A stretch of 64,000 nt of DNA. Source: Desulfomonilia bacterium (GTDB lineage Bacteria; Desulfobacterota; Desulfomonilia; UBA1062). Under the pieces are notes generated by a model. It saw nothing but the letters and a program-made list of their open reading frames with translations, was not told the DNA's origin and made no database searches. The stretch spans positions 64,001 to 128,000 of the forward strand of contig JBEKDT010000009.1 of assembly GCA_050014195.1 (NCBI GenBank), read 5' to 3'. Of the stretch, positions 10,870 to 46,971 are shown piece after piece (position 1 is the stretch's first letter; each line of letters starts with the position of its first letter). Both the position numbers and the translations under genes were made by a program.

Positions 10870-10872
10870 AGG

Positions 10873-14700: not shown

Positions 14701-14726
14701 AATACCGTGAAAGGGGGGAGTAAGGT

Positions 14727-16184: not shown

Positions 16185-16195
16185 GGAGGTGAGCC

Positions 16196-17404: not shown

Positions 17405-17415
17405 GAGGTTAAGCC

Positions 17416-17865: not shown

Positions 17866-17874
17866 GAGGACACT

Positions 17875-18309
17875 ATGGCGAAAGAGATTTACTTTGAAGA
17901 TGTCGCAATCGGTACAGAGATGCCCAAGCTCGTCAAGAGCCCCCTGCAGAAGCTCAATCATGTCATCTATGCCGGGGCCTCGGGTGACTTCAATCCGCTG
18001 CACACCGACGATGATTTTGCAAAGGCAGTGGGGATGAAGGATGGGATGATCACCCATGGCATGCTTGTCATGGGATTTGTCGGGCAGGCTGTCACGAACT
18101 GGATACCCAAGAAAAACCTCAAACGGTTCGGGGTGAGATTTGCCGGCATGACCAAGCCGGGTAACACCATCACCGTTATTGGAAAGGTTATAGACAAAAA
18201 GAGCCAAGGTGGTGTTAACCTTATCACCTGCGAGGTTACTGCTGTAGATGAAACAGGAGATGTGAAAGTAACGGGGAGTTTTGACGCGGCCCTTCCGACA
18301 AAGGGCTGA
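17875..18309 (+). CDS. MaoC-family (R)-specific enoyl-CoA hydratase (catalytic subunit)
   Basis: YAGASGDFNPLH hydratase-2 motif, THGML. Confidence 0.9.
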   Translation: MAKEIYFEDVAIGTEMPKLVKSPLQKLNHVIYAGASGDFNPLHTDDDFAKAVGMKDGMITHGMLVMGFVGQAVTNWIPKKNLKRFGVRFAGMTKPGNTITVIGKVIDKKSQGGVNLITCEVTAVDETGDVKVTGSFDAALPTKG

Positions 18310-18338
18310 TTTCAAGCATACTTCAGGAGGATAAAGAT

Positions 18339-27783: not shown

Positions 27784-27905
27784 TATAGGGTAAAATAAAA
27801 AGAAATAATGAGCCATCCATCTATTGCTCATCACCCTGTAATCGGGTATCCAGGAATGTTGAAAAATGTAAGTATTCATGATTGATTCGTGAGGAGGCGT
27901 TTGAC

Positions 27906-31339: not shown

Positions 31340-33295
31340 ATGTGCGGTATTGCGGGAATTTTAAATCTTAATGGCAAACCGGTTGACTTAAAAATACTGG
31401 CCAATATGACTGCAATCATTAAACACCGGGGGCCTGACGGCAATGGGATTATGCTCTTTGATCCGAAGTTCAGCGAAGGCCAAAACGGGATCATAGAATA
31501 TAAAGACCAGATATTGAAACTTGAGGGCACGGAAGATAACCATTCTAATTATAATGTCGGACTCGCCCACGCCCGGTTGAGTATTATTGACCTATCTGAG
31601 CGAGGCCATCAGCCTATGTGCAACAGAGACGAGTCTTTGGGGATTGTGTACAATGGCGAGATATACAACTACCTAGAGATAAAGGCGGAACTGGTTTCAA
31701 AAGGTTATGAATTCAAATCGAAAACTGACACTGAAGTTATTCTATACGCATATCAGGAATGGGGGGTTGACTGCCTTACCAGGTTTAACGGGATGTGGGC
31801 ATTTGCAATCTGGAATCGGCGGGAAAAGAGGTTGTTTTGTGCAAGGGACAGGTTTGGGGTGAAGCCATTTTACTATTATTTGGATGAGCACACTTTCGTT
31901 TTTGCCTCCGAGATAAAGCAAATATTGGAATGTAAAGAATACGAGAGGAACCCGAACGAACCGTTAATTTATGATTATTTGGTAATGGGTTTTGAGGATC
32001 ATACGAGAGAGACTTTTTTTAAGAACATCTATCAACTTAAAGGTGGTGAATATGCAATTCTTGATTTAAATAAGAGGACATTCGAAAAGAAAAGATATTA
32101 TGATTTAAACGGTATTAATAAATTAGTTTGCAAAGAGTCGGACTATTATCTTCGTTTCAGGGAACTATTTACTGACTCTGTCAAACTAAGATTGAGAAGT
32201 GATGTTCCAGTTGGGAGCTGTCTTTCTGGCGGGCTGGATTCATCAGCCGTAGTTTCAATTATCGCAACACTATGGAAAGAGAAAGAGAGGGTTTTATTTA
32301 ATACATTTACTGCGTGCTGGGACGATAAAAAGATAGATGAGAGAAAATATTCAGAAGCAATTGTTGAATCCTCAGGCTTCAGCGGCAACTTTATTTATCC
32401 TTCCTCTGAAGATCTGACAGAGGACTTGGCCAGTCTTCTTTGGCATCAGGAAGAACCCTTTGGAAGCCTTTCAATTTTTGCTCAGTGGTCCGTCATGAAA
32501 GCAGCACAAAAGAAGGGTATAAAAGTTCTTTTAGACGGTCAAGGAGGAGATGAAGTTTTTTGCGGATATGAAAGATATTATGCATATTATCTATCAGCTC
32601 TATTGAAGCAGTTTATGCTTAGGGAATTCATTAATGAGTTTATAAAAGGTGTAGAAAATTCTAAACTAAAATTATCCGGAATGATCTTATATTATATTTA
32701 TTTTAATTGTGTACATGTTCGTGCCCTACGTCATCATATTAAATCATATAGAATATTAAATCCAAATTTTTTCATGAATTATGACATATTAGTTCGTCTT
32801 AAAAATGGCTTTAAAGAAGCTAATGATTTGTCTGAGCTTCAAAGAAACGAAATTCAAGGAGTTCAACTTTCACATCTTCTTAAATATGCTGATAGAAATT
32901 CTATGGCTTTTTCTATTGAAACACGGCTACCATTTCTTGATTATAGATTAGTTGAATTTGCATTATCAATTCCCATGGGATTATTAATCCATGATGGATG
33001 GACTAAAAATATAGTAAGAGAAGGTCTGAAAAGGATAATACCAGATGAAATTAGGAGAAGGAAAGATAAGATTGGGTTTGAAGTTCCACAAGATTTATTT
33101 ATAAAACATATCTTAGAAAATTATTTTAATGATATTAATGAAAATAGCTTGATTAGCACATATTTCAATAAAAAATGGTTATTAAAAGATATAAAAACTA
33201 TAAGTCGAAAAAACCCTATCATATGGAAAACATTATGTCTAGATTTATGGTTCAAAGTATTTTTTGAAAACGCCTATAATAATTTTAATCAATGA
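31340..33295 (+). CDS. asnB: Asparagine synthase-like amidotransferase (uronamide formation likely)
   Basis: MCGIAG, HRGPD, LSGGLDSS, GQGGDE, DRNSMAFSIETRLPFLD. Confidence 0.93.
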   Translation: MCGIAGILNLNGKPVDLKILANMTAIIKHRGPDGNGIMLFDPKFSEGQNGIIEYKDQILKLEGTEDNHSNYNVGLAHARLSIIDLSERGHQPMCNRDESLGIVYNGEIYNYLEIKAELVSKGYEFKSKTDTEVILYAYQEWGVDCLTRFNGMWAFAIWNRREKRLFCARDRFGVKPFYYYLDEHTFVFASEIKQILECKEYERNPNEPLIYDYLVMGFEDHTRETFFKNIYQLKGGEYAILDLNKRTFEKKRYYDLNGINKLVCKESDYYLRFRELFTDSVKLRLRSDVPVGSCLSGGLDSSAVVSIIATLWKEKERVLFNTFTACWDDKKIDERKYSEAIVESSGFSGNFIYPSSEDLTEDLASLLWHQEEPFGSLSIFAQWSVMKAAQKKGIKVLLDGQGGDEVFCGYERYYAYYLSALLKQFMLREFINEFIKGVENSKLKLSGMILYYIYFNCVHVRALRHHIKSYRILNPNFFMNYDILVRLKNGFKEANDLSELQRNEIQGVQLSHLLKYADRNSMAFSIETRLPFLDYRLVEFALSIPMGLLIHDGWTKNIVREGLKRIIPDEIRRRKDKIGFEVPQDLFIKHILENYFNDINENSLISTYFNKKWLLKDIKTISRKNPIIWKTLCLDLWFKVFFENAYNNFNQ

Positions 33296-34470
33296 GTAAT
33301 ATAGATATCAGACATAGAATTGCTTTTATTATACCTCTTTTTATTTATGCAGGTTATTTTAAGTCATCAACATTTGATTTTGCTAGGTGGTATTCAGATC
33401 TTACTTTTTGGTTATTAATTTTTATTATATTAGTTCAATTATCTAAGATAAATTCTAATAAGATTCACTTTCGCAAATTCAATCCGGTCTTTTTCATCTT
33501 CCTGCCAATATCGTTCATGATATTGATTTCTGTTCTATTCGGCGAACTAACATCTAATGGTTTAATAAAAATGAAAGGTTTTATAGTAATATTAATCCCT
33601 ACTGTTCTAGTCAGCTTCTGGGTCATAAAGAATGAAGCTGATCTTAAGTACTTAGGTAATGGAATCATTGCATTGGGGCTTTTTACCAGTGCATATATTT
33701 TATCTAATTCAATATATAAGTCATGGGGAAATGTACAGTATTTGTCCTGCGGCACTATGACATCATTGGGCGGGCTTGTTTCAATTCATAGATTTTTAGT
33801 TGAGATCAAGAAGAGATGGTTTTACTTTTTATCATGTTGTATCTGTTCTATAGGTGTTATAGTAAGCTATGCACGTGGCCAGCAACTTATCTATTCCTTA
33901 ATATTATGTTCCATGTTGACATATTATTTTTGCTTTATCCGAGAGAAAATAAAGAAGAAAGTTATAGTGATATTCTGTCTAATTATATTATCAATACTTA
34001 TACTAATTGTTTACAATACCAAGTTAAGCTTGGATGAGAATTTTCTATATAGATTTGGTGAGAATTATTTTGAAGAAGGATTAGATTTACGATTTATATT
34101 ATTTGAAAATGCTCTGACATTATTCAGACAAAACCCCTTCATCCCGGCTGGAATAGGACAATACTCAGTAGAATTTCAAGGAGAAATAATTAGATATCCA
34201 CATAATATACCCTTAGAATTTGCTGCAGAGTTTGGTTTTATTGGACTTCTTTATTACTGCTTATTAATCATGGGAGTTTTTTATGGTTATTTACGATTTA
34301 GAAAAAACAAAATTATTAGAGAACATCTAATTATATACGTTTTTCTTTTTTTAATATCCTTAAAACAAGGATATATTTATGAGGATAAGGATTTCTGGAC
34401 ATGGTCGGCTTTAGGCTTAGGATTTTTAGGTTGGCATAGAGTAGTTCTTGACAGGTATGGATCCAGATAA
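33292..34470 (+). CDS. wzy: O-antigen polymerase/ligase-family membrane protein
   Basis: Very AT-rich, many TM segments, SYARG, GIG, YPHNIPLE. Confidence 0.75.
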   Translation: MSNIDIRHRIAFIIPLFIYAGYFKSSTFDFARWYSDLTFWLLIFIILVQLSKINSNKIHFRKFNPVFFIFLPISFMILISVLFGELTSNGLIKMKGFIVILIPTVLVSFWVIKNEADLKYLGNGIIALGLFTSAYILSNSIYKSWGNVQYLSCGTMTSLGGLVSIHRFLVEIKKRWFYFLSCCICSIGVIVSYARGQQLIYSLILCSMLTYYFCFIREKIKKKVIVIFCLIILSILILIVYNTKLSLDENFLYRFGENYFEEGLDLRFILFENALTLFRQNPFIPAGIGQYSVEFQGEIIRYPHNIPLEFAAEFGFIGLLYYCLLIMGVFYGYLRFRKNKIIREHLIIYVFLFLISLKQGYIYEDKDFWTWSALGLGFLGWHRVVLDRYGSR

Positions 34471-34542
34471 AAGAAAAAGAAGAAGATCTAACTGTAATAG
34501 GCAGTGTGGTACATCAAGACTAATTTGGCAGATACATTTAAA

Positions 34543-35670
34543 ATGATAGCAACTGCAATCCTAACATCAGCCCACGACATATCTGACACCCGAATTTTTT
34601 ATAAAGAATGCAAAACTCTTGCAGGAGCTGGATACCAGGTCACCTACATTGTACCACATGAACAGGATCATTTTCTTAATGGAGTGTGTATTCATTCTGT
34701 CCCAAAGCCTAAAAACAGATTGGATCGCTTCATTTATACAATTTGGAATGTGTATAAGGCAGCAAAAATCGAAGATGTAGAATGTTATCATTTCCATGAT
34801 CCTGAACTAATACCCATTGGTTTGTTATTGAAGATTAAAGGTAAAAAGGTCATCTATGATGTACATGAAGATGTACCCAAACAGATTCTGAATAAAAATT
34901 GGATTCCTTCTATTCTCAGATCTGTAGTGTCTAAGGTTACAGGTTTTGTTGAACATCTAAGCGCGTTGTTCTTTGATGGGATAATTGCAGCTACACCAGA
35001 TATTGCTAGTAATTTTCCTGAAACAAAAACAATCATTGTTCAAAATTTTCCTATTCAGCACGAATTAACAACATCTCATCCTACGCCATATTGTAAAAGA
35101 TCCCCAATCATTGCATACGTAGGAGGGATATCAGAAATTCGTGGTATTAAGGAGATGATCCGTGCAATGAGCATACTAAAGCCACATTGCGGGGCGTGTA
35201 TACATATAGGTGGCACATTTTACCCATCCAATCTAGAAGAAGAAGTAAAAAATCTAACAGGTTGGGCTCATGTAAAATACATGGGTTGGCTATCCCGTGA
35301 GCAGATTTCACATCTGCTCAATAACGCAAGAATAGGTTTAGTTCTCCTTCATCCGAAAAAAAATTATCTACTAAGCTATCCAATAAAATTGTTTGAATAT
35401 ATGTCAGTGGGAATCCCTGTTATAGCATCTGATTTTCCGCTTTGGAGAGAAATTATTGAAGGCGCAGGTTGTGGTCTTCTGGTTAATCCCCTTGATCCAA
35501 AAGCCATTGCAGATTCAATACTATGGTTGCTCGAACATCCTGAAGAAGCCGAAATCATGGGGAAAAGAGGACAAGAGGCAGTTAGACATCGATATAATTG
35601 GCAGAATGAAGAAATTAAGTTATTAGATTTTTACAGCAAGATCCTAGGTAACATAAATAATTGTATCTGA
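34543..35670 (+). CDS. Glycosyltransferase family 4
   Basis: DTRIFYKE, HFHDPEL, YDVHED, PIKLFEYM. Confidence 0.92.
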   Translation: MIATAILTSAHDISDTRIFYKECKTLAGAGYQVTYIVPHEQDHFLNGVCIHSVPKPKNRLDRFIYTIWNVYKAAKIEDVECYHFHDPELIPIGLLLKIKGKKVIYDVHEDVPKQILNKNWIPSILRSVVSKVTGFVEHLSALFFDGIIAATPDIASNFPETKTIIVQNFPIQHELTTSHPTPYCKRSPIIAYVGGISEIRGIKEMIRAMSILKPHCGACIHIGGTFYPSNLEEEVKNLTGWAHVKYMGWLSREQISHLLNNARIGLVLLHPKKNYLLSYPIKLFEYMSVGIPVIASDFPLWREIIEGAGCGLLVNPLDPKAIADSILWLLEHPEEAEIMGKRGQEAVRHRYNWQNEEIKLLDFYSKILGNINNCI

Positions 35671-35671
35671 A

Positions 35672-36349
35672 ATGTTACTACTTGATTGCGCTGATAAAAG
35701 CATGAGGAGAAAAGATTTGTTTGAAAGGATTCTCATTTTAGCACCACACACGGATGATGGTGAATTTGGTTGTGGTGGAGCGATATCAAAGTTTATCGAT
35801 TTGGGGAAGGAAGTGTATTATGTTGCTTTTTCGGATTGTAAAAAATCCCTTCCTCCGGATATGGCGCCTGATACCCTAGTGAAAGAACTAATGAGCGCAA
35901 CCAAGATACTAGGTGTCCCTCCTTCGAATGTTATCGTAAAAGAATTTGAACTACGGTGCTATGAAAGAGATCGACAAGAGATACTTGAGGAGATTATTAT
36001 CATCGGGAAAGATATTAACCCTGATCTAGTGTTCTTGCCCTCACCAAATGATTTACACCAGGATCATGAGACGATAGCTATGGAAGGTCTCCGCGCCTTC
36101 AAGCTGTCAGCTACAATTCTCGGCTATGAAATGCCTTGGAATAATTTGACATTTAATACTACTTGTTTCATAGGCCTGACAGAACAAAATCTTCAAAAAA
36201 AGGTCGAGGCGCTTCGATGTTACAAGTCTCAAGCTGAAAGATTTTATGCGACAGAGGAATTGGTTCGATCTTTGGCAATCACAAGGGGAACTCAAGTAAA
36301 CACACACTATGCTGAAACCTTTGATGTGCTTAGATGGCTTATAAAATAA
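35672..36349 (+). CDS. PIG-L/LmbE-family de-N-acetylase
   Basis: APHTDDGE and HQDH metal-binding motifs, YKSQ. Confidence 0.9.
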   Translation: MLLLDCADKSMRRKDLFERILILAPHTDDGEFGCGGAISKFIDLGKEVYYVAFSDCKKSLPPDMAPDTLVKELMSATKILGVPPSNVIVKEFELRCYERDRQEILEEIIIIGKDINPDLVFLPSPNDLHQDHETIAMEGLRAFKLSATILGYEMPWNNLTFNTTCFIGLTEQNLQKKVEALRCYKSQAERFYATEELVRSLAITRGTQVNTHYAETFDVLRWLIK

Positions 36350-36389
36350 CAAGAAAAATTAATCCTACTATCCTCGTAGGAATATCCAC

Positions 36390-37718
36390 ATGAAGCACGA
36401 CATTGATGAATTGGAAACACTCACTTATGAGCAGAGCTATAATGGAATAGATAGGGCTCTTCTCATACAGCAGCTGAAGTATGTCGCAGAAAACAGTCTT
36501 TTTTATCTGGAGAAATACGAAGAACATCGTTTAGAAAAAAATGATATCATCGACGTGAATAACTTTGAATTAGTGCCCTTTACTTATAAAGAAGAACTAT
36601 TGAGAGAGCAGGAAAAATATCCACCATTTGGTCGCTTGGCAACAAAGGATAATCAACACCATCTTCGTCGTGTACACATGACTTCAGGTTCAACAGGCAG
36701 ACCTCTGTATGTTGTATTAACTGAGAATGATTTGTTTGCAACTGTTGAAGCAGGACGTCGGGCATTTCTCTGTGCTGGGCTTAATGATGAAGATACGGTT
36801 ATTCACTGTCTGAACTACTGCTTATGGGCTGGAGGGCTGACTGATCACCTCAGTCTTGAGGCTACAGGTGCTACGGTTATCCCCTATGGCGTTGGGAACA
36901 CCAAACAACTTCTTCGGACAATTATTAATCTGAGACCAACAGCCATTTCTTGCACACCATCTTATCTGACAAGGCTGGAGTATATTTTGCGTGAGGAGTT
37001 TCAGTTATCCCCTGCTGCCCTTGGTCTTGAAAAGGCGTTCTTGGGGGGTGAGGGAGGTCTACAGAACCCGTTGGTGCGATCACGTATTGAAGAAACATGG
37101 AAAATGAAAGCAATTGATGCCAACTATGGAATGGCCGATGTCTTGAGTATATTTGGAGCGGAATGTGAGGCTCGAACAGGGTTGCATTTTCATGGGCAGG
37201 GTATCTTATATCTCGAACTCATTGATCCTTCATCTAATAAGAATTTACCAGTTGTAGATGGAGTAGTTGCTGAAATGGTTTTAACGAATCTAAGAAGAGA
37301 AGCTCAGCCTCTTGTGAGATATCGTACCAGAGATCTCATTCAAATTGTGTCAACCAGCCAATGCACATGTGGACGAAAATCATTCCGATTCCTTGTAATG
37401 GGGCGCACAGATGACATGATCACAGTTCGTGGTATTAATGTCTACCCAAATGCAATTGCAAATATCCTAGTGAAGCATCCAGAATGGTTCAGTGGAGAAT
37501 ATGAACTTATTGTGGATACACCTCCCCCAATTGAAATGCCACTCTTGCGGGTTGAATTATCTGCAAGTATTGAGTCAATTAATAATGAATCGCTTAGTTA
37601 TTATTTGATTAAAAAGTGTCATGAAAATCTTAATTTCAGACCCCGTATAGAGTTCATGGCACATGGTCATTTTCCCCGGACTGAAGGTAAGACCAAAAGA
37701 CTTAGGAAGATATACTGA
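36390..37718 (+). CDS. Phenylacetate-CoA ligase-like adenylate-forming enzyme
   Basis: TSGSTGRP, YGMAD, YRTRD, GRTDDM...GINVYP, GKTKR. Confidence 0.9.
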   Translation: MKHDIDELETLTYEQSYNGIDRALLIQQLKYVAENSLFYLEKYEEHRLEKNDIIDVNNFELVPFTYKEELLREQEKYPPFGRLATKDNQHHLRRVHMTSGSTGRPLYVVLTENDLFATVEAGRRAFLCAGLNDEDTVIHCLNYCLWAGGLTDHLSLEATGATVIPYGVGNTKQLLRTIINLRPTAISCTPSYLTRLEYILREEFQLSPAALGLEKAFLGGEGGLQNPLVRSRIEETWKMKAIDANYGMADVLSIFGAECEARTGLHFHGQGILYLELIDPSSNKNLPVVDGVVAEMVLTNLRREAQPLVRYRTRDLIQIVSTSQCTCGRKSFRFLVMGRTDDMITVRGINVYPNAIANILVKHPEWFSGEYELIVDTPPPIEMPLLRVELSASIESINNESLSYYLIKKCHENLNFRPRIEFMAHGHFPRTEGKTKRLRKIY

Positions 37719-37884
37719 ATAAGATATCTTGCCACCTATAATTTAGGGATACTGATGAACAAGCGAACTCATCTATTAAGAGATTTAGTAGGATATCTTC
37801 ATCTGAAAAGATTACGAATTATCCTTCACACTATTTTACCTCAATTAATGTGTATTGATCAAAAGTCATTAGGGGGATATTAAT

Positions 37885-38766
37885 TTGAAAGTAATAACTA
37901 GTATGCACATTGCACAGTTCCTCGGGAAAACTTTACAAGGAGAACCAAACCCGATTTTTAAACCTGCAAACCTAAGCGATTGTGGACCGAATGATATTGT
38001 CTGGGTGAAAAGCTATACACAGGAACGACTTATTTTGCTTGAAAAAAGACAACCAGGATTAGCTATCTGTGATATGAAAACATCAGAAAAAACAACAGTT
38101 CCTACTATTCTATCAGAAAATCCACGGCTTGATTTCATTCGTGTGCTAAACCATTTTTATCTTGAGAAGAGAGAAGCTTGTATACACCCCACTGCAATCA
38201 TTGAGAAGAGCGCAACAGTTGGCAAAGATGTTACCATAGGTGCATATGCCTATATAGGTCATGATGTATTAATAGGTGACGGATGCAACATAGGAACTGG
38301 TGTAGTCATAGAAGGCAAAGTTTGCCTAGGAAATAGGTGCGTTATAAAGTCTAATGCTGCCCTTGGTGGACAGGGATTTGGTTTTGAATATGATGAATAC
38401 GGAAATCTAATTCATTTCCCGCATCTTGGAAGTATTATTACTGAAGATGATGTCTGGATTGGGTCCTGTTCTACAGTAGAAATTGGAACACTTGGAGCTA
38501 CTAGGATTTTTCGTGGTTCAAAAATTGATGATCTGGTTCAAGTGGGACATAATGTCACTGTCGGTCGAAACACGCTAATAATGGCAAACACAGTTCTTTG
38601 TGGTGGTTGCAGTATAGGTGAGAGGTGCTGGATAGCACCGAACAGTGTCATAAAAGAAAAGGTAAACATTGGGGACAATGTTACAGTTGGGCTAGGATCA
38701 GTGGTGCTAAGAGATGTAGAGGATGGAGTTGTAGTAGCAGGAGTTCCGGCAAAACCTCTCCAATAG
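37885..38766 (+). CDS. LpxD-like left-handed beta-helix N-acyltransferase
   Basis: NPRLDF, IHPTA, GFGF, KIDDLVQVGHNV, AGVPAK. Confidence 0.85.
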   Translation: MKVITSMHIAQFLGKTLQGEPNPIFKPANLSDCGPNDIVWVKSYTQERLILLEKRQPGLAICDMKTSEKTTVPTILSENPRLDFIRVLNHFYLEKREACIHPTAIIEKSATVGKDVTIGAYAYIGHDVLIGDGCNIGTGVVIEGKVCLGNRCVIKSNAALGGQGFGFEYDEYGNLIHFPHLGSIITEDDVWIGSCSTVEIGTLGATRIFRGSKIDDLVQVGHNVTVGRNTLIMANTVLCGGCSIGERCWIAPNSVIKEKVNIGDNVTVGLGSVVLRDVEDGVVVAGVPAKPLQ

Positions 38767-38808
38767 AACGTGAAATTAAAGAGTCTGTTTTAAGAGTGGA
38801 GGTTAATA

Positions 38809-39723
38809 ATGTATCGTATAAAAAAGTTCGAGATTAGGGCATCAGAGATAGCCGATTATCTCAATGAACAGCTTGTAGGAAATGATTTCATCATTACAAG
38901 TCCTCATTCCATTAGAACATACAAATCTTCTGAACACTCATCGATGGAAGTCAATAGAAGTCGAAGCCAGATATTGATCATTTCTGATCATCCTGTGCCA
39001 GTAGATTTATGTACAGGCTATATAATTTCACAGAACCCTGATCTTGACTTGGCATATATATTACGCGAATTTTTCTCTACAGCTCCAATTAACCAAATCC
39101 ATTCATCTGCGATGATTTCAGAAGAAGCCCGTATAGGGAGAAATGTAATGGTAGGTGCTCATACTATTATTGGTCCTGATGTTACAATTGGAGATAACAC
39201 AAAAATTTTTCATAATGTTGTAATAAATGGCCTTGTCCATATTGGCAAATTCTGTGTTATCAAAGATGGCGCAGTTATTGGTAGTGAGGGATGGGGTTTC
39301 ATTGACGATGAAGATGGTATTCCCTTTCATCCTCCTCAATTAGGTCTTATCAGTATTGAAGACAGGGTTTGGATAGGTTCGAACTCAACAATTGAACGTG
39401 GCATGATTGAAGAAACAGTGATTCATGCTGATGTAAAAATCGACGACCTTGTTCATGTCGGGGCAGGATCACACTTAGGACAAAAAAGTAAACTCACTGC
39501 AGGTGTTGTAGTAGCTTCTCATGTTACAATAGGGGAAAATGTTTATATTGCACCCAATGCAGTAATTCGGGAAGAGTTGAATATTGATGATGACGTAGTT
39601 ATTGGCATGGGTGCAGTTGTCATTAACAATCTTACTTCTGGCAATAGATATGTAGGCAATCCAGCCCGATTAATCAGAAAGAAGAAAAGGCAGACTGATG
39701 ATGAAAAAGATACAGTTTCCTGA
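38809..39723 (+). CDS. Second LpxD-like left-handed beta-helix protein
   Basis: IHSSA, GSEGWGF, GSNSTIERG, KIDDLVHVGAGS, VGNPAR. Confidence 0.85.
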   Translation: MYRIKKFEIRASEIADYLNEQLVGNDFIITSPHSIRTYKSSEHSSMEVNRSRSQILIISDHPVPVDLCTGYIISQNPDLDLAYILREFFSTAPINQIHSSAMISEEARIGRNVMVGAHTIIGPDVTIGDNTKIFHNVVINGLVHIGKFCVIKDGAVIGSEGWGFIDDEDGIPFHPPQLGLISIEDRVWIGSNSTIERGMIEETVIHADVKIDDLVHVGAGSHLGQKSKLTAGVVVASHVTIGENVYIAPNAVIREELNIDDDVVIGMGAVVINNLTSGNRYVGNPARLIRKKKRQTDDEKDTVS

Positions 39724-40786
39724 AAAGATTACTCCATTTCTTCGTGAAAAACTTGCCCTCTTGGAATCATCTTTTGGGTCAGATTCCAATGAATACAGAG
39801 GGCTTTCTCTTCAATATATTTTGAGCCCTTTAGAAGCAAAGGAAACTATCGAGCAAAATCTCAAGCATTATGATGCAGGTTTGTATCTTAATGAAGCTGA
39901 AGGAGACTTACCTGGAATAGAAAGACTATATAGGAATGTACTCGTTATTGAACCAACCTTGGTATGTCTTGCCCATTGTCGCTACTGCCTTCGGAGCAAC
40001 TACACAAAACATACATTAACAGAGAGGCAATTGATCGATGTAGCGAAGTATTGCGGCAATTCTAGCAATAGAGATATTTTGAACGAAGTTCTTATCACCG
40101 GCGGGGATCCCCTTATCATACCTCAACGTTTGGAAGTTCTTTTAAATGCTCTGATAGACTATGCACCAAATATTAAAACTATCAGGATAGGGACACGTCT
40201 TCCTGGTCAGGATCCAGCACGTATAGATGAAAATGTAATTAGTCTTTTTATTAATAAACCAACTTTAAGGTTTGAATTGGCGACTCAGATCAATCACCCG
40301 GTAGAGTTTTTCCCTGAGGTTGAAGAGGCTTTTCTCAAAATCTCAGATTTAGGAGTAAAGATATATGCGCAGAATGTCCTTCTTAAAGGAGTAAATGACC
40401 AAATTGATGCGTTGGTTGAGTTGTATAATAGGATGCGGGTTAATAATATCGAAGCTCATTATTTATTCCATTGCGTGCCTATGGTTGGAATTCATCATTT
40501 AAGAACTACCATTGCGAAGGCTCTTATACTGATAAAAGATCTTGTTTGTTCTGGAAAAATATCAGGCAGAGTTAAGCCCATGCTTGCAGCTATGACAGAT
40601 ATCGGAAAGATAACCTTCTATGAAGGTGTTATACGTGATCGGAGAGATAATAGGGTTTTGTTGCAAAGTAACTACCAATTTGCTGACCGTATTGCATGGA
40701 ATCCATCATGGCAGCTTCCTGAATCTGCAGGAATAGATGAGCACGGCCTACTACGTGTGTGGTATATTGATGGTGATGACTCCTAA
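39698..40786 (+). CDS. KamA-family radical SAM/PLP aminomutase-like protein
   Basis: CLAHCRYCLR (CxxxCxxC), ITGGDP, IRIGTR, NHP, QNVLLKGVND, HHLRT, SG...GK. Confidence 0.88.
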   Translation: MMKKIQFPEKITPFLREKLALLESSFGSDSNEYRGLSLQYILSPLEAKETIEQNLKHYDAGLYLNEAEGDLPGIERLYRNVLVIEPTLVCLAHCRYCLRSNYTKHTLTERQLIDVAKYCGNSSNRDILNEVLITGGDPLIIPQRLEVLLNALIDYAPNIKTIRIGTRLPGQDPARIDENVISLFINKPTLRFELATQINHPVEFFPEVEEAFLKISDLGVKIYAQNVLLKGVNDQIDALVELYNRMRVNNIEAHYLFHCVPMVGIHHLRTTIAKALILIKDLVCSGKISGRVKPMLAAMTDIGKITFYEGVIRDRRDNRVLLQSNYQFADRIAWNPSWQLPESAGIDEHGLLRVWYIDGDDS

Positions 40787-40805
40787 TATAGCTATGTGAA
40801 ATAAG

Positions 40806-41179
40806 ATGAGAACCTCGGCAAACAAAAAACAACACCATATCTGGATTTTCAACCATTATGCGATTACTCCTGATCTTCCTGGGGGAACCCGTCACTACCA
40901 CATTGCGTATGAACTCGGTCGGAATGGTTATGATGTAACAATATTTGCCATGAATTGGGAGCAGTCACTTATATTTCAGGCAAAGGTGGCGATAACTATC
41001 AAGATCATTTCAAATTTAAGATGGCTGGTATCAACCTGGAAGTAAAGACCTATAAGCCAATACCGTATGACCAGAAAACTGATTTGTTCATGCCAGGACT
41101 CAGCATAATGGATGCATTGTTTAATCTTGGTAAATCTACAATAAATCTAATGAACTATTCCGCAGCAAGCGGCGAATAA
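40806..41179 (+). pseudogene. Chimeric relic: GT4 N-terminus fused out of frame to a WbqC-family C-terminus
   Basis: IWIFNHYAITPDLPGGTRHY...VTIFA (GT4 start); second frame ICHELGAVTYISGKGG..YQD...FMPGLSIMDALFNLG (WbqC-like end). Confidence 0.75.
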
Positions 41180-41201
41180 TGAAACTCATAGAGATTGAAT
41201 T

Positions 41202-42503
41202 ATGAGAATTTGGTTAGTTTCTATAGGTGAACCAATACCAACAAGCGCTGACAGTAATTCTCGACTGCTTCGGACAGGATATTTTGCTAATTTACTGTCA
41301 CAATATGGCAATGATGTAATCTGGTGGACTTCTGCATTTGATCACTTTAGAAAAACACAGCTTTGTACTACGGATACTGATTTGGTTATTAATCAACATC
41401 TTACTATCAGGCTTTTGTGTGGCTCTGGATACAAAAGTCATGTGTCGCTAAGACGGGTCTGGGATCACTGGAAAATCTCTAGGAAGTTTTCTTCGGCCAT
41501 AAAGAAGCAGACTATGCTTCCGGATATAATTTTAGCTGCATTACCTACGATAGATCTCTGTTATGAGTCAGTTGTGTTCGGGAATCAGCAGGGAATACCC
41601 GTAGTTCTTGATATGCGAGACATGTGGCCAGATATTTTTGTAGATCTCGCTCCTGATTTCTTAAGACCATTAACACGACGCCTCTTAAGTTATCAGTTTC
41701 GAAGAGCTGGATATGCATGCGAAAAAGCTACAGCTATTATTGGGATAACAGATGAATTTGTTGCATGGGGTTTAAAACGGGGACAACGATGTAAGCAAGA
41801 ATTCGACAAATCATTCCCCTTTGGATATTCGATTCAGGCCATAACAAGAGAATCTGAAGAGAATGCAATTATTGAACTCAATCATCGAGGGATCCATTTT
41901 GATGACGATAACCTATATGCCCTTTATATTGGGTCGCTCAGTCGCAATGCGAACTTGGGTGATATCATATCTGCAAGCAGAATTCTTTATGAGCAAAACT
42001 CAAAATGGAAGTTTATTGTATGTGGCGATGGTGATTGTGTTGATCTAATATTAAATCATATTAGTAAATATCCAAATGTAAAATACGGGGGTTGGGTAGA
42101 TAGAACAATGATTCATAGTCTAATGCGACGATGTCATGTTGGTTTAAATCAACTTCCTGATCGATACGATTTTCTTGCCACCATTAATAACAAAGCCATT
42201 GAGTATATGAGCGCGGGTCTCCCTATCATTTCAAGTCCGGATCGGGGTGTTCTATGTGAGCTTCTCAAGATGCATGAGTGCGGGATAAGTTATCCTTCTG
42301 GTGATGCTGGGGCTCTGGCTTCGACGCTTACACGGTTTTATGATGACCAGGGTATGCTAAGGAAAATGTCGCAGAACGCCATGCAGCTGTTCCAAGAACG
42401 TTTTATTGCAGAAAAGATTTATACAGAGATGATGGAGCATTTGGTGATGATAGCGGAAAATCAAAATCAATCTGTTAGAACAGGTGGTCAGGATTGGGCA
42501 TGA
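41202..42503 (+). CDS. Glycosyltransferase family 4
   Basis: DMRDMWPD, NKAIEYMSAGLP. Confidence 0.9.
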   Translation: MRIWLVSIGEPIPTSADSNSRLLRTGYFANLLSQYGNDVIWWTSAFDHFRKTQLCTTDTDLVINQHLTIRLLCGSGYKSHVSLRRVWDHWKISRKFSSAIKKQTMLPDIILAALPTIDLCYESVVFGNQQGIPVVLDMRDMWPDIFVDLAPDFLRPLTRRLLSYQFRRAGYACEKATAIIGITDEFVAWGLKRGQRCKQEFDKSFPFGYSIQAITRESEENAIIELNHRGIHFDDDNLYALYIGSLSRNANLGDIISASRILYEQNSKWKFIVCGDGDCVDLILNHISKYPNVKYGGWVDRTMIHSLMRRCHVGLNQLPDRYDFLATINNKAIEYMSAGLPIISSPDRGVLCELLKMHECGISYPSGDAGALASTLTRFYDDQGMLRKMSQNAMQLFQERFIAEKIYTEMMEHLVMIAENQNQSVRTGGQDWA

Positions 42504-42525
42504 CATATTTTCGGGATAGATATCT

Positions 42526-43419
42526 ATGAACAGACTGGATGACATTATGATTGACGATAAAGTACAGCAGAAAATTGAGTATCGGCCATCTCTGGCCGGG
42601 TGCTTAGCACGGATTTTCATACCCCTGTTGCAAGCAGTACTCCCACCAAAAGCATACCGTGTGATCTATGATGGACTCTATGAGAGTTACAAGCAGATTC
42701 TCAGATCGAGCTATGTAGTTAGGGTTATCGCAGCAAGACTCTTTAGCGATCAGGAGCAGCAGTTAAAGACATCACTCACTCATCAGTTACTGCCCTACAC
42801 TATGGGGGGATGGAAGGCGCTCGAGAACGCATTCAAAGTGACTGCCCTTGTCGAACAAAAAAAGATTGAAGGTGCTTTGGTTGAGTGCGGCGTTGCAAAG
42901 GGTGGTACTGCTGCGATGATGGCCTTAACAAATCGAAAGCTTGGCACAATTATGCGGCCTAAGTGGTTTTTCGACTCCTACGAAGGCCTACCTGAACCGA
43001 CTGCTGAAGACTATGAAGGTGGGAAACAGGGCCACTTTATTCGTCCTCTTACAAAAGGGGCCTGTCTGGGGACCATTGAGCAAGTTAGTGATTTGATGTT
43101 CAATAAATTGCACTTGCCCAAGAATGAGGTTCATTTGGTGAAGGGCTGGTTCCAAGACACGGTGCCTGTTTATCGTGAGAGGATCGGGCCAATTGCCATG
43201 CTGCGTTTGGATGGTGACTGGTATGAGTCTACCAAGATACCGCTGGAAAATCTTTTTGATCAAATTAGTATTGGCGGGTTTGTAATCATTGATGATTACG
43301 CAACCTGTTTTGGTTCTCGTAAGGCGGTGGACGAGTTTCGGGCTGAGCGCAGTATCACCTCGTCGCTTCGGCCTGATGGGCGTGGAGGCGCCTGGTTCGA
43401 GAAGCATGAGGCGAAGTAA
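42526..43419 (+). CDS. TylF/MycF-family O-methyltransferase
   Basis: VECGVAKGG, FDSYEGLP, KGWFQDT, LRLDGDWYEST, IDDY. Confidence 0.9.
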   Translation: MNRLDDIMIDDKVQQKIEYRPSLAGCLARIFIPLLQAVLPPKAYRVIYDGLYESYKQILRSSYVVRVIAARLFSDQEQQLKTSLTHQLLPYTMGGWKALENAFKVTALVEQKKIEGALVECGVAKGGTAAMMALTNRKLGTIMRPKWFFDSYEGLPEPTAEDYEGGKQGHFIRPLTKGACLGTIEQVSDLMFNKLHLPKNEVHLVKGWFQDTVPVYRERIGPIAMLRLDGDWYESTKIPLENLFDQISIGGFVIIDDYATCFGSRKAVDEFRAERSITSSLRPDGRGGAWFEKHEAK

Positions 43420-44075
43420 TGAAAACATCGCCTGAAACACCGATCGCTTTTCCCGAAAGGTGGATCTATGTATTGTTGAAGCGAGTAATGGATGTAGTCG
43501 GTGCCATGGCGGGGATATTAGTCTTGGCGCCTTTGCTTATCTTGATTGCTGTCGTCTTAAAATTAACATCACAAGGACCGGTTTTTTACCGTGGTGTGCG
43601 CGCCGGATTGAACGGAAAGCCATTTCGTATCTTCAAATTCAGAACAATGTTAGAGAATGCCGAGTCTTTGGGCGGGCCCACTACAAGTACTAACGATCAA
43701 AGAGTAACGCGTATTGGAGCCTTGCTTCGTCGAACCAAGCTTGATGAGTTCCCACAGCTCCTGAATGTCTTGGCTGGTGATATGAGCCTCGTGGGGCCTC
43801 GGCCGGAAGTGTTGGAATATACCTCACAATACAAAGGTGAGGAGAAATATATTCTCAGCATGCGTCCCGGGATAACTGATTATGCATCAATTGAATTTGC
43901 CGATCTTGATGATCTGGTGGGAAGCACAGACCCTGACAAATACTTCCGTGAACATATCCTACCTCGTAAGAATGCATTGAGAGTCAAATATGTGAAAGAA
44001 TGGTCATTGGGTTCTGATTTTGGCATTCTTTGGGCTACTTTTCTCAGGGTGATGAAGAGAATTGCTGCGCAATGA
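43419..44075 (+). CDS. Monotopic phosphoglycosyltransferase (initiating sugar transferase)
   Basis: [35 protein letters not shown]. Confidence 0.92.
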
Positions 44076-45016
44076 GTATCTTGGAGAGAATGCATCTCGG
44101 TCGAACCGGGCTTTATATCAGTCGCCTCGGAATGGGCTGTTGGGCTATTGGGGGTCATGGTTGGGGCCAGGTGAGGGATGAGGATTCTATCCGAGCCGTC
44201 CAGGGCGCATTAGAGAATGGAGTCACATTCTTTGATACAGCAGATGCCTATGGGCTTGGAAAGTCTGAGACATTACTTGCTAAGGTATTAGGTTCGTCCA
44301 TTACTCAAGTTGTCATCGCAAGTAAAGGGGGCGTTCGATGGAATGAAAGTGGAAATATATGGTCCGATAGTTCACCTGCCTACCTGAGACTGGCTGTAGA
44401 AAATAGTTTAAGACGATTGAAGCTTGATTGTATTCCCCTTTACTATATCCATAAACCTGATGAGGTAACGCCTATACAGGAGAGTGTTGCTGCCCTTGAG
44501 CGCATGTGTGAAGAAGGTAAGATAGGCGCCATAGGCGTCGCAAATTTCTCTGCCGATCAATTGCTGCAGGCATTGCAGGTTGCTCTGGTAGCAGCGGTTC
44601 AGGTACGTTTAAATATTTTTGATAGAGATACGAGTAAAGAGTTATTGGGCATTTGCAGAGAGCATGGCATAACTCTTGTTGCTTGGGGCGCACTTGCGGA
44701 TGGATTGTTAACCGGTAAATTTTCAACCAATACAAAGTTCTCTGAAGATGACCACCGTAACAGAATGCCTGAGTTTACAGGGAATAATTTTTTAAAGTAC
44801 GACAAATGTCTAAAATTACTTAAGCAGTTGGCTGCCGATAGGGGACGGAAAGTTGGTCAACTTGCACTTCGGTGGGTGCTGGATTTTGAGCCTTTTACAT
44901 GTTCGCTGTTTGGTGCAAAAACAGATATTCAGGTAATGGATAATTTGGGAGCAGATGGGTGGAGCTTAACAAAAGAAGAGCTTGCAGCTATCGATTCCAT
45001 AGTGGCTGAACTTTGA
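44072..45016 (+). CDS. Aldo/keto reductase
   Basis: GMGCWAIGG, FDTADAYG, ASKGG, SLRRLK, YYIHKPD. Confidence 0.92.
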   Translation: MSILERMHLGRTGLYISRLGMGCWAIGGHGWGQVRDEDSIRAVQGALENGVTFFDTADAYGLGKSETLLAKVLGSSITQVVIASKGGVRWNESGNIWSDSSPAYLRLAVENSLRRLKLDCIPLYYIHKPDEVTPIQESVAALERMCEEGKIGAIGVANFSADQLLQALQVALVAAVQVRLNIFDRDTSKELLGICREHGITLVAWGALADGLLTGKFSTNTKFSEDDHRNRMPEFTGNNFLKYDKCLKLLKQLAADRGRKVGQLALRWVLDFEPFTCSLFGAKTDIQVMDNLGADGWSLTKEELAAIDSIVAEL

Positions 45017-45023
45017 AGATGAT

Positions 45024-46001
45024 ATGACTTACTCAATTGATATTTTGTGTGATTTGTATAAAACAATGTTTCGTATCCGCTCTTTCGAAGAGAGCCTGGT
45101 GGAACCCATCCTAAACAGCGAGATCCGTACACCCTGCCATCTTTACAGCGGTCAGGAGGCCGTTGCGGTCGGTCTCTGTACGGCCCTCTCCAAGGATGAT
45201 TACATCTTTGGTAATCATCGCTCACATGGCCATTTCCTGGCCAAGGGGGGCTCCCTGAAGGCTATGGCGGCTGAGATTTATTGCCGTGAGGCAGGTTGCT
45301 CCAGGGGCCGTGGGGGCTCTATGCACCTGATCGATCCGGATGTGGGTATGCTGGGATCGGCACCGATAGTGGCCGGGACTATCTCCCTGGCACTTGGGGC
45401 GGCGCTGGCCTCTTCCATTCGAAAAGACGGTCGTGTGACAGTGTGTTTTTTCGGAGACGGGGCCACAGGCGAAGGCGTCCTTTACGAATCCCTGAACTTT
45501 GCCGCCTTGAAAAAACTCCCTTTGATATTTGCCTGTGAAAATAATCTTTATGCTACGCATATGCCTATCCGGGAATGCCGGGTAAACCTGCCGATCAGCA
45601 GGATCGCAGAGCCCTTCGGCATAGAGATTCATACGGTGGATGGTAACGATGTGTTGCAGGTCCGTGATGAAGGTCAACATGCAGTGGAAACCTGCCGCAT
45701 TGGTAATGGACCCGTATTTATGGAGTTCATGACCTATCGATACCGAGGTCATGTAGGCCCGGATGACAACATACAGGGTAATCATACAGATATAAGGCCC
45801 AGGGAAGAAGTCGCCATATGGATGGAAAAGGATCCCATCAAGAAATTCGAACGATACCTGACAGATCAAGGAATGATGGATGAGAATGAGCTGCAGGATA
45901 TCAGGAACGAGGTTGCTGATGAGATACGGGATGCAAAGGATTTCGCAATAAATAGCCCACGCCCGTCGGGAGAGGATCTGACGAAATATGTCTTCGCATA
46001 G
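45024..46001 (+). CDS. TPP-dependent 2-oxoacid dehydrogenase E1 alpha-like subunit
   Basis: HLYSGQEA, HRSHGH, GSMH, GDGA...ENN, YRYRGH. Confidence 0.92.
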   Translation: MTYSIDILCDLYKTMFRIRSFEESLVEPILNSEIRTPCHLYSGQEAVAVGLCTALSKDDYIFGNHRSHGHFLAKGGSLKAMAAEIYCREAGCSRGRGGSMHLIDPDVGMLGSAPIVAGTISLALGAALASSIRKDGRVTVCFFGDGATGEGVLYESLNFAALKKLPLIFACENNLYATHMPIRECRVNLPISRIAEPFGIEIHTVDGNDVLQVRDEGQHAVETCRIGNGPVFMEFMTYRYRGHVGPDDNIQGNHTDIRPREEVAIWMEKDPIKKFERYLTDQGMMDENELQDIRNEVADEIRDAKDFAINSPRPSGEDLTKYVFA

Positions 46002-46971
46002 GACACTCCAGTACGGCCTGGCCATTAACGAGGCGCTCCACCAGATGATGGAGATGGACAGCTCCGTTTTTCTCATCGGGCAGGGGGTGGAAAGCCCCTG
46101 GTATGTGGGCAATACTGCACAGGGGCTTCTGGAGAGGTTCGGGAAAGGACGGGTCATTGACACACCAGTGTCCGAGAATGCCATTACAGGGGCAGCCGTA
46201 GGGGCAGCCATCGCAGGTATGAAACCAGTGGTGGTTCATCCCAGGGTGGATTTCATGATGTACGCCATGGACCCAATCATAAACGAGGCAGCTAACTGGT
46301 TTTATATGAACGGCGGCAGGGCTTGTGTACCGGTCGTTTTTTGGGGTATCATAAACAGAGGTGGAGAACAGGCAGCCCAACATTCACAGGCTATTCATGC
46401 GTTGTTTGCTCATTGTCCAGGTCTCAAGGTCGTAATGCCGTCAACCCCTTATGATGCAAAGGGATTACTCATATCAGCTGTAAGGGATATGAACCCAGTT
46501 GTTTATATTGATGATAGGTGGCTGTATAATCTGGAGGATGTTGTTCCGGAAGAAATGTATGAAGTCCCCATTGGTCAAGCTATAGTTAGAAAAAAAGGTA
46601 AGGATGTAACAATCGCTGCGGTCTCTTATATGGCGCATACTGCTCTGAAAGCATCTGAGAAACTCCTAGATCTTGGTATTGATTGTGAATTGATCGATCT
46701 GCGGAGTATAAAGCCATTGGATAAGAATACCCTATTACAATCAGTTCGAAAAACAGGCAGATTAGTAATTGCTGATGTAGGATGGAAATCATTCGGAATT
46801 AGCGCTGAGATAGCTGCTATTGTTTGTGAGGGGGCCTTCAAAGAATTAAAAAGTCCGGTTGTTCGAGTTGCCCTACCCGATACACCAGCCCCTGCGAGTA
46901 GATCGCTAGAGGGTCAATATTTTCCTAAAGAAGATGACATAATAAAGGCTGTTCAAGGTATTATTAATTGA
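45988..46971 (+). CDS. 2-oxoacid dehydrogenase E1 beta-like subunit
   Basis: DTPVSE, AQHSQ, PYDAKGLL, IDLRSIKPLD. Confidence 0.92.
   Translation: MSSHRTLQYGLAINEALHQMMEMDSSVFLIGQGVESPWYVGNTAQGLLERFGKGRVIDTPVSENAITGAAVGAAIAGMKPVVVHPRVDFMMYAMDPIINEAANWFYMNGGRACVPVVFWGIINRGGEQAAQHSQAIHALFAHCPGLKVVMPSTPYDAKGLLISAVRDMNPVVYIDDRWLYNLEDVVPEEMYEVPIGQAIVRKKGKDVTIAAVSYMAHTALKASEKLLDLGIDCELIDLRSIKPLDKNTLLQSVRKTGRLVIADVGWKSFGISAEIAAIVCEGAFKELKSPVVRVALPDTPAPASRSLEGQYFPKEDDIIKAVQGIIN

Follow-up and report, generated by a model that had tools for sequence, protein, structure and literature searches.

The window analysed here is a 64,000-nucleotide stretch of DNA from a Desulfomonilia bacterium (assembly GCA_050014195.1, contig JBEKDT010000009.1, positions 64,001 to 128,000), and coordinates without a locus name refer to it. 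A Wzx/Wzy polysaccharide locus spans 23466-49111. Inside it, occupying exactly 35672-40786 and all on the plus strand, are genes for a PIG-L/LmbE-family de-N-acetylase, a PaaK-like adenylate-forming ligase, two LpxD-like hexapeptide proteins and a KamA-like radical S-adenosylmethionine (SAM)/pyridoxal phosphate (PLP) aminomutase (Table 1). A first-pass annotation of the sequence had described five consecutive co-oriented genes in a Wzx/Wzy locus, with the second acyltransferase gene overlapping the aminomutase start; the open reading frame (ORF) list and the Pfam and NCBIfam matches agree with this arrangement, and the overlap is of 26 nt. The remaining gaps within the cassette are 40, 166 and 42 bp. 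On balance we lean towards reading the five genes as a portable glycan-tailoring cassette, by which a beta-amino acid would be made, activated and N-linked to an amino sugar.

Table 1. Genes of the cassette and the features that adjoin it in the window (aa, amino acids; GT4, glycosyltransferase family 4)
Feature	Coordinates	Strand	Length	Pfam	Remarks
PIG-L/LmbE-family de-N-acetylase	35672-36349	+	225 aa	PF02585	
PaaK-like adenylate-forming ligase	36390-37718	+	442 aa	AMP-binding, AMP-binding_C_2	Proposed beta-amino acid activator
LpxD-like 1, hexapeptide N-acyltransferase-like	37885-38766	+	293 aa	Hexapep	Catalytic His kept (H222)
LpxD-like 2, hexapeptide protein	38809-39723	+	304 aa	Hexapep	Ala replaces canonical catalytic His
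KamA-like radical-SAM/PLP aminomutase	39698-40786	+	362 aa	Radical_SAM	Distinct, probably non-lysine subfamily
GT4 glycosyltransferase	34504-35670	+		Glycos_transf_1, Glyco_transf_4	1-bp gap before the PIG-L gene
Gene remnants at the 3′ edge of the cassette	40806-41179	+	79 aa, 74 aa		Two short ORFs

Upstream of the cassette the locus encodes, in order, DegT, a GFO/MocA-hexapeptide fusion whose best match is UDP-GlcNAc 3-dehydrogenase, Wzz, a nucleotide-sugar dehydrogenase, Wzx, an AsnB-like amidotransferase, Wzy and a GT4 (Pfam/NCBIfam). Downstream are a GT4, a TylF-type methyltransferase, a small Bac_transf phosphoglycosyl transferase, an aldo-keto reductase, E1alpha/E1beta and a PglF-like 4,6-dehydratase, and beyond the polysaccharide locus lie housekeeping genes (deaminase, DnaX). 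The G+C fraction is 0.31-0.40 over 32-42 kb and 0.42-0.55 elsewhere in the window.

In a large protein collection, 706 relatives of the KamA-like protein are found at E ≤ 0.001, and the best 120 of these 706 are all at least 55% identical to it. From a scan of one genome per prokaryotic species we took 34 loci from other species that encode a KamA-like protein (designated below by L numbers) and compared them with the window by tblastn of the window locus proteins, at E ≤ 1e-8 and with at least half of the query covered. A PaaK-like gene lies within ~3 kb of the KamA-like gene in 23/34 loci, counted with some contigs that are short or end beside the KamA-like gene (L010, L011, L022). An LpxD-like gene is present in 21 of the 34 and lies between or beside the ligase and aminomutase genes in 18; a PIG-L gene is present in seven. 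All five genes occur in the window order in four loci (L003, L004, L006 and L034), at 45-74% protein identity. This shared order, together with the adjacency of PaaK-like and KamA-like genes in 23/34 loci, puts the arrangement beyond chance, and the genomic evidence that the cassette may work as a functional unit is strong. The grouping proposed in the first-pass annotation therefore holds well outside the window: genes for the aminomutase, the ligase and an LpxD-like protein are found together in the glycan loci of different phyla, frequently along with a deacetylase gene.

By record titles and taxon labels, the carriers belong to the Thermodesulfobacteriota, Myxococcota, Bdellovibrionota, Planctomycetota, Bacteroidota, Calditrichota, Omnitrophota, Patescibacteria and Bacillota. 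Close to home the distribution is patchy. Among 40 relatives of the host genome (completeness 71-100%), the KamA-like gene was found at E ≤ 1e-40 in one: 1/14 of the same genus, 0/10 of other genera of the family and 0/16 of the class. The contig of that one same-genus carrier may be L004. At the 3′ edge of the cassette, the 74-aa ORF (40955-41179) corresponds to no more of WbqC (PF08889, E 2e-15) than its final 63 positions (154-216 of 218), and the 79-aa ORF (40806-41045), which has no Pfam match, looks like the N-terminus of a GT4. The KamA-like gene of L003 abuts the next GT4 directly, without a remnant-bearing gap, and the remnants in the window are probably a recombination scar. Patchy distribution, low G+C and the WbqC remnant fit a horizontally exchanged module of the serotype type. 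At the other edge, homologues of the GT4 that precedes the PIG-L gene (34-50% identity) lie just 5′ of PIG-L in L003, L004 and L034, and this GT4 is possibly specific for the modified sugar. Promoter-like sites in 33000-43000 number 36, against 35.1 in shuffled sequence, and terminator-like sites five, against 5.6; neither is in excess, so we draw no conclusion from them about operon structure.

Near-identical cassette DNA (35672-40786; 92-100% of sampled words) is present in at least 24 sequencing runs of peat or wetland metagenomes. The assembly may stem from 19 of these, and peat or wetland is the origin of the remaining five too; there were no RNA runs among the sequencing runs listed with such DNA.

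The core of three genes (KamA-like, PaaK-like and LpxD-like) occurs both in O-antigen or capsule loci and in loci for nonulosonic acid (NulO) or flagellin glycosylation, in many phyla. In the first kind of setting, L012 has a Wzt ABC transporter and a GNAT protein, of both of which L016 has clustered homologues, and L014 encodes Wzx together with a glycosyltransferase family 2 protein. In the calditrichotal locus L017 the cassette is directly preceded by genes for DegT, a small hexapeptide transferase, a sugar dehydrogenase and a GFO/MocA oxidoreductase, which would be the same kind of 2,3-diamino-uronic-acid set as that of the window. In the second, the cassette of L008 sits among NeuB, a NeuC-type 2-epimerase, a CMP-sugar cytidylyltransferase, a CBS-domain nucleotidyltransferase and an Fe-alcohol dehydrogenase. 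Each protein of this NulO set has a homologue in at least one of L007, L009 and L026 (blastp clustering), and a Maf-type flagellin glycosyltransferase is encoded in L009 as well, clustering with a homologue in L026. These four loci look like legionaminic-type nonulosonic-acid or flagellin glycosylation islands.

Three families of 370-454 aa without a Pfam match also flank the cassette in two of the NulO loci, L007 (6609-9055 and 12434-13642) and L008 (7363-8541 and 11065-13541). One of the three has a faint NCBIfam match to the LIC12162 family of transferases (E 3e-4).

The KamA-like protein has KamA-type families as its best NCBIfam matches and scores 131.1 bits on the KamA family model TIGR00238, for which the cut-off is 199.2 bits. 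On the equivalog models of Lys, Arg and Glu 2,3-aminomutase it reaches only 112-113 bits against cut-offs of 525-650, and the C-terminal LAM_C domain of Pfam has no match in it. The cysteines C90/C94/C97 (CxxxCxxC), R99 and K304 are invariant in 20/20 aligned homologues. A profile of these 20 homologues matches one PDB sequence only, lysine 2,3-aminomutase (LAM) 2A5H, at E 1e-35, and aligns the Cys triad with C125/C129/C132 of LAM, R99 with R134 and K304 with K337. We take K337 to be the PLP-binding lysine of LAM and R134 the arginine that binds the alpha-carboxylate. The AlphaFold model (pLDDT 88.4, pTM 0.87) has LAM 2A5H as its best fold match (E 4e-21, TM 0.70); the next matches, viperin and lipoyl synthase, are at about E 1e-6, the best of them at E 9e-7.

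The side-chain pocket is where the protein departs from LAM. There D293 and D330 are presumably the Asp pair that holds the epsilon-amine of lysine. D293 aligns with V260 of the KamA-like protein ('FHCVP' where canonical enzymes read 'YQCDP'), at a position that is hydrophobic in the 20 homologues (V, I, C or L), and D330 lies where the KamA-like protein has lost two residues ('A--AMTDIGK' vs 'VVDAPGGGGK'). An internal control is provided by a canonical KamA paralogue in the same genome (contig C21, locus L002, 446-2781, minus strand), which retains both Asp positions with the canonical motifs; it scores 353.5 bits on TIGR00238 and 476 on AblA, the latter below the cut-off of 525. In the KamA-like tree the branch of this paralogue is very long, at 5.9 changes per column, and an actinomycete clade is nested within the glycan-associated clades.

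The KamA-like protein, with its score below the TIGR00238 cut-off and both lysine-binding Asp residues absent, is no canonical KamA, and lysine specificity is improbable for it. The first-pass annotation had placed it in the KamA family as an aminomutase; the cofactor motifs, the carboxylate Arg and the LAM fold speak for that assignment, and the family cut-off and the lost Asp pair against its being a canonical member. From sequence and model it belongs to a separate subfamily that keeps the radical-SAM/PLP 2,3-aminomutase machinery. Because both Asp residues are lost its product is probably not beta-lysine and its substrate probably not lysine, and the hydrophobic residue in place of D293 suggests an uncharged substrate side chain. 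Neighbouring genes give no consistent clue to the substrate: in the loci compared they include GNAT, Fe-alcohol dehydrogenase, sulfotransferase and B12-radical-SAM genes, with an asparaginase and a Rieske oxygenase in L023. A search of the ESM Atlas with the KamA-like protein returned only generic 'radical SAM' clusters, with no substrate clue.

On C21 the canonical paralogue is followed by a gene for a D-Ala-D-Ala-ligase-like ATP-grasp protein, and the two may form a separate beta-lysine ligation system.

The identities given to the deacetylase and ligase genes in the first-pass annotation stand, both proteins having their Pfam domains above cut-off, with the proviso that the ligase is PaaK-like and not a PaaK equivalog. 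The PIG-L protein scores 57.4 bits on PF02585 (gathering cut-off 28.2) and contains 'PHTDD' and 'HQDH', which we take to be the metal-site motifs of the family. Its nearest solved relatives are diacetylchitobiose deacetylases (8BGN, E 9e-11), and a bacillithiol enzyme is rejected, as it falls under the equivalog cut-offs of both BshB1 and BshB2. Its orthologues adjoin the cassette in L003, L004, L006, L034, L020 and L021. The ligase bears 'TSGSTGRP' and a C-terminal 'GKTKR', and its best NCBIfam matches are of PaaK type, at 222.5 bits (NF041878, cut-off 700) and 211 bits (TIGR02155, cut-off 646.3). Scores this far under the PaaK equivalog cut-offs make it PaaK-like in fold only. The nearest solved structures are a Bacteroides PaaK-like protein (4R1L, E 3e-56), 2-hydroxyisobutyryl-CoA synthetase (6HDW, E 4e-46; CoA, coenzyme A) and PaaK (2Y27); with 6HDW among them, the fold of the ligase is one that accepts small aliphatic acids and makes CoA thioesters.

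The first-pass annotation had also remarked that no acyl carrier protein (ACP) gene is nearby, and this is so: the carrier-protein family PF00550 has two matches in the whole 4.2-Mb genome (contigs C19 and C2) and none on the window contig, C9. No carrier protein was found among ORFs of at least 30 aa in the gaps between genes, and by coordinates no PP-binding gene lies within L003, L034, L009 or L014.

LpxD models are the best matches of both hexapeptide proteins, so that the LpxD likeness asserted in the first-pass annotation is right for the pair; its description of both as acyltransferases is less secure for LpxD-like 2, which belongs to a clade without the catalytic His. LpxD-like 1 passes the subfamily model NF002060 (277 bits, cut-off 207) and fails the equivalog TIGR01853 (211.6 bits, cut-off 242.5), and LpxD-like 2 is under the cut-off of each (175 and 175.2 bits). 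The true LpxD, on contig C1, scores 365.2 bits on TIGR01853, above the cut-off, matching model positions 2-324 of 325. Its gene has lpxA-like matches directly downstream, and the cassette copies are without lipid A gene context. When the genome is searched with TIGR01853 the two cassette copies reach 203 and 170 bits, their matches running no further than model positions 311-312 of 325. LpxD-like 1 matches the LpxD model from position 2 to 311, thus including the N-terminal domain, and its alignment with Chlamydia LpxD 2IU8 ends at residue 338 of a 374-residue chain, 36 short, in a chain that includes an expression tag. The C-terminal helical region of LpxD is presumably the ACP-docking part, and the early stop of both cassette proteins means that most of it would be missing from them.

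In a tree of 29 LpxD-like sequences, those associated with the cassette form one 25-row clade (support 100/100) apart from housekeeping LpxD. Within it, the LpxD2 clade (15 rows, support 100/98) includes LpxD-like 2 and the lone copy of every single-copy locus outside the Planctomycetota group, and the LpxD1 clade (5 rows, support 100/97) includes LpxD-like 1 and is found only in five-gene, PIG-L-bearing loci. The other groups are a 4-row Planctomycetota clade and the first copy of L017, which stands alone. LpxD-like 1 and 2 are 38% identical over their full length, 'VGHN' in the former being 'VGAG' in the latter. The His of the 'GHN' motif, which we take to be the catalytic residue H239 of E. 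coli LpxD, is present in 14/29 rows (housekeeping LpxD, L012, L015, L016, the first copy of L017, the Planctomycetota clade and the LpxD1 clade) and absent from 15/15 proteins of the LpxD2 clade.

This loss means that the two transferases are not equivalent and that LpxD-type chemistry is not to be assumed for LpxD2. QdtC, WlbB and AntD are sugar N-acyltransferases of this fold that need no catalytic base, and the absence of the His would therefore be in keeping with a CoA-dependent transferase. The lone LpxD-like copy of the Planctomycetota loci keeps the His. Since either type, with the His or without it, can be the only LpxD-like protein that accompanies the other core genes, we think that both are transferases with the same donor.

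An exclusive pairing of PIG-L with LpxD-like 1 was considered and rejected: 5/5 members of the LpxD1 clade sit with PIG-L, but LpxD2-only loci carry other deacetylases. These are a CE4/DUF3473 polysaccharide deacetylase in L013, with clustered homologues directly after the KamA-like gene in L014 and L018, and a distant PIG-L in L009. The pairing is suggestive only.

The pathway that we put together from these genes would run as follows, with every chemical step, the amino acid, the CoA carrier, the acceptor sugar and the position of attachment read from gene content. The KamA-like enzyme would shift the amino group of a free L-alpha-amino acid, non-lysine and probably with an uncharged side chain, from C2 to C3. 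The PaaK-like ligase would adenylate the resulting beta-amino acid and convert it to a thioester, CoA being the most likely partner given that no carrier-protein gene is present; beta-aminoacyl-CoAs are stable metabolites, unlike alpha-aminoacyl thioesters. In parallel to LpxC, the PIG-L enzyme would strip the N-acetyl group from a nucleotide- or lipid-linked sugar of the N-acetylhexosamine type, and the LpxD-like left-handed beta-helix proteins would transfer the beta-aminoacyl group to free sugar amines. LpxD-like 1, with its His, would act on the amine exposed by PIG-L. LpxD-like 2 would serve a second amine by a base-independent mechanism, for example one introduced by DegT or the beta-amine that the first substituent brings. 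That the window has two transferases suggests two acylations, of both amines of a diamino sugar or of a sugar amine and then the beta-amine. The flanking GT4s, Wzx and Wzy would build the modified sugar into the polymer.

As to the acceptor, the first-pass annotation had proposed a diaminouronic acid. For the window the candidate is a 2,3-diamino uronic acid, as indicated by the WbpB/WbpE/WbpD-like genes around the cassette both here and in L017. The proposal does not carry over to loci where the cassette keeps company with legionaminic-type NulO genes instead: these untie it from the diaminouronic acid and would show that it also serves other amino sugars. A different coupling may be found in L025, from a Lachnospiraceae metagenome-assembled genome, where the KamA-like gene lies between a 591-aa PIG-L/DUF7402 fusion and an ATP-grasp ligase (3371-7378) without PaaK-like or LpxD-like genes; this may be an alternative way of joining the same beta-amino acid to a de-acetylated amine. 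More tentatively, at somewhat below an even chance, we propose that the three-gene core is an undescribed, horizontally mobile module of at least nine phyla, with a non-lysine aminomutase, a PaaK-like CoA ligase and a His-less LpxD-like transferase that put beta-aminoacyl groups, each bringing an amine that is free or can be capped, onto amino sugars of O-antigens and capsules and onto the legionaminic-type nonulosonic acids of flagellin.

Several observations count against this pathway. The aminomutase is under the cut-off of its own family. The PaaK-family members among the NCBIfam matches include enzymes that do not make CoA thioesters (F390 synthetase, BagE/FevW). The usual LpxD-like partner in the core is the one without the catalytic His, and it may act by some other mechanism or be no transferase at all. 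The KamA-like gene has neither a PaaK-like nor an LpxD-like neighbour in 11/34 loci (seven from actinomycetes, and L011, L023, L025 and L029), and L008 has PaaK-like and KamA-like genes without an LpxD-like gene. The neighbours in L031, from Micromonospora, are beta-ketoacyl-ACP synthase III (KAS III), a different 526-aa AMP-ligase, a thioester-reductase-type protein and a 1927-aa ORF, and this locus looks like a secondary-metabolite cluster. We also know of no bacterial glycan with a beta-aminoacyl substituent, and to our knowledge glycan structural surveys contain none, which would mean either novelty or a wrong inference. The combination in L008 would suit a ligase that works the other way round. 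In that case the PaaK-like enzyme would adenylate the carboxylate of the sugar (the uronic acid here, C1 of the NulO elsewhere), the amine of the beta-amino acid would attack it to form an amide, and PIG-L and the LpxD-like proteins would carry out a separate N-acyl exchange with an ordinary donor. A sugar carboxylate is always at hand, from the nucleotide-sugar 6-dehydrogenase in the window and from NulO genes in L007, L008, L009 and L026, and amino-acid amides of uronic acids occur in O-antigens. We consider such a reversal improbable, however, as a dedicated LpxD-like clade between or beside ligase and aminomutase in 18/34 loci is hard to square with a generic donor, the solved structures closest to the ligase are those of CoA ligases for small acids, and the AsnB-like amidotransferase in the locus could already amidate the uronic acid.

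Doubt about the aminomutase itself leads to an explanation that we rate as similarly improbable, if by a hair less so. The KamA-like enzyme might catalyse another radical-SAM/PLP reaction, on an amino sugar or on an attached aminoacyl group, and the ligase might activate an unrelated hydroxy, aryl or short-chain acid for transfer by the LpxD-like proteins. The sub-cut-off score, the very long branch that separates the protein from the canonical paralogue and the loss of both side-chain-binding Asp residues would all fit, as would the phenylacetate or 2-hydroxyisobutyrate used by PaaK relatives of known function. Set against these are the invariance of the PLP Lys and of R99, the counterpart of the carboxylate-binding R134 of LAM, and the fact that every characterised KamA-family enzyme we know of is an amino-acid 2,3-aminomutase. 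Moreover, the subfamily adjoins other carboxylate activators, the ATP-grasp protein in L025 and the AMP-ligase in L031, which fits a free-acid product that needs activation. Very improbable, in our judgement, is a lipidation in which the LpxD-like proteins take hydroxyacyl-ACP from fatty-acid synthesis and the ligase and aminomutase serve another product. LpxD-like 1 does keep the catalytic His and exceeds the NF002060 cut-off by 70 bits, but both proteins have lost most of the C-terminal region, a true lpxD/lpxA pair is present elsewhere in the genome, the window contig has no ACP gene, and the linkage to ligase and aminomutase is tight across phyla. The beta-aminoacyl cassette remains our preferred reading.

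None of the five proteins passes the equivalog cut-off of a characterised enzyme in NCBIfam, and each known system that the cassette recalls resembles it in part. In the LpxC/LpxD steps of lipid A synthesis, UDP-3-O-acyl-GlcNAc loses its N-acetyl group and is then N-acylated; there too a metal-dependent deacetylase is followed by an LpxD-fold N-acyltransferase on a UDP-sugar amine, and LpxD-like 1 shares the catalytic His and the N-terminal domain match. The cassette differs in using PIG-L in place of LpxC, in transferases that are below equivalog level, shortened at the C-terminus and in a clade of their own, in having no ACP at the locus and in an LpxD-like 2 without the His. The KamA-like protein shares with LAM (KamA/AblA, 2A5H) the fold, CxxxCxxC, the PLP Lys and the carboxylate Arg, and differs in both lysine-binding Asp, LAM_C and the family cut-off. 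EpmB/EpmA, which act in the beta-lysylation of elongation factor P, pair an aminomutase with an enzyme that couples a beta-amino acid to an amine. Unlike these and AblA/AblB, the cassette sets a PaaK-like ligase and a hexapeptide transferase beside its aminomutase, and its target would be a glycan.

N-acyl tailoring of amino sugars offers a second set of parallels. AntD of anthrose synthesis uses 3-hydroxy-3-methylbutyryl-CoA, and the tetronate genes of Vibrio cholerae O1 include an AMP-ligase and an ACP. Such systems also combine a beta-helix N-acyltransferase with genes that make or activate the acyl group in a glycan locus; the cassette would differ by an aminomutase-made beta-amino acid, a PaaK-type ligase without ACP and an LpxD-like architecture in place of the small PglD/WlbB type. 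Beta-lysine is carried by the gulosamine of streptothricin, and blasticidin S contains beta-arginine. In these, too, a KamA-family aminomutase supplies a beta-amino acid that is amide-linked to a sugar amine, but they are small molecules made with basic amino acids and coupling of the non-ribosomal peptide synthetase type or by ATP-grasp enzymes, whereas here the enzyme is non-lysine and the setting is Wzx/Wzy or flagellin/NulO glycans.

The first-pass annotation knew of no characterised O-antigen pathway with a dedicated aminomutase, and we came across none: in the full-text literature searched, which covers few subscription journals, nothing links an aminomutase to an O-antigen, capsule or flagellin-glycan locus, and no paper brings together three of the enzyme families of the cassette. 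The only 'aminomutase' in the available portion of a Legionella O-antigen paper is glutamate-1-semialdehyde aminomutase. IdnL4 is presented as a putative glutamate 2,3-aminomutase, with activity not seen in vitro (PMC11284099). What is known, then, is N-acyl tailoring of amino sugars; what would be new is a mobile module, shared across phyla, that unites a dedicated non-lysine aminomutase, a PaaK-like ligase and LpxD-like proteins of a His-less clade.

The N-acyl groups on amino sugars and nonulosonic acids decide serotype, recognition by phages and antibodies, and surface charge. A beta-aminoacyl group, if the pathway is as we propose, would give the glycan an amine that is positively charged and resists proteases; polysaccharides of zwitterionic character have immunomodulatory activity. 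It would be a new class of glycan N-substituent. The aminomutase, by acting on a neutral side chain, would bring a new natural specificity to the few so far established among radical-SAM 2,3-aminomutases (Lys, Arg, Glu), and it could find use as a biocatalyst in making beta-amino acids. Of the many lineages in which this compact module is found, three or more are isolates, judging by name or record title (Geomonas oryzisoli, with a homologue at 72% identity, the Calditrichales strain behind L017 and actinomycetes), so that the prediction is directly testable.

Other parts of the window also bear on polysaccharide synthesis. Downstream of the cassette, an aldo-keto reductase and pyruvate-dehydrogenase-type E1alpha/E1beta genes (44030-46971, with 42526-43419 and 47165-49111) lie between the initiating phosphoglycosyl transferase and the PglF-like 4,6-dehydratase, near the TylF-type methyltransferase, and the block is conserved in L003 at 71-88% identity. 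The presence of a thiamine-dependent E1 in a glycan locus suggests that a two-carbon branch is added to a 4-keto sugar here, in the manner of yersiniose-type sugars, which would be a second unusual tailoring route in the locus. On the minus strand, 845-13142 holds a second polysaccharide locus, of the ABC-transporter-dependent kind (ABC2_membrane, ABC_tran, several GT4s, a methyltransferase and another AsnB-like amidotransferase). Between the two polysaccharide loci, at 13504-19247, are a family III CoA-transferase, a KAS III-C/ChsH2-type protein with OB and zinc-ribbon domains, a thiolase-like protein, two MaoC-type hydratases and a short-chain dehydrogenase/reductase, an acyl-CoA block that resembles the sets for beta-oxidation of steroid or branched side chains. 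In the nucleotide-sugar dehydrogenase at 27882-29537 (551 aa), the Pfam match to the C-terminal domain covers residues 398-519 and so exceeds the 103-position profile, which means that this protein has insertions or extensions relative to the family models.

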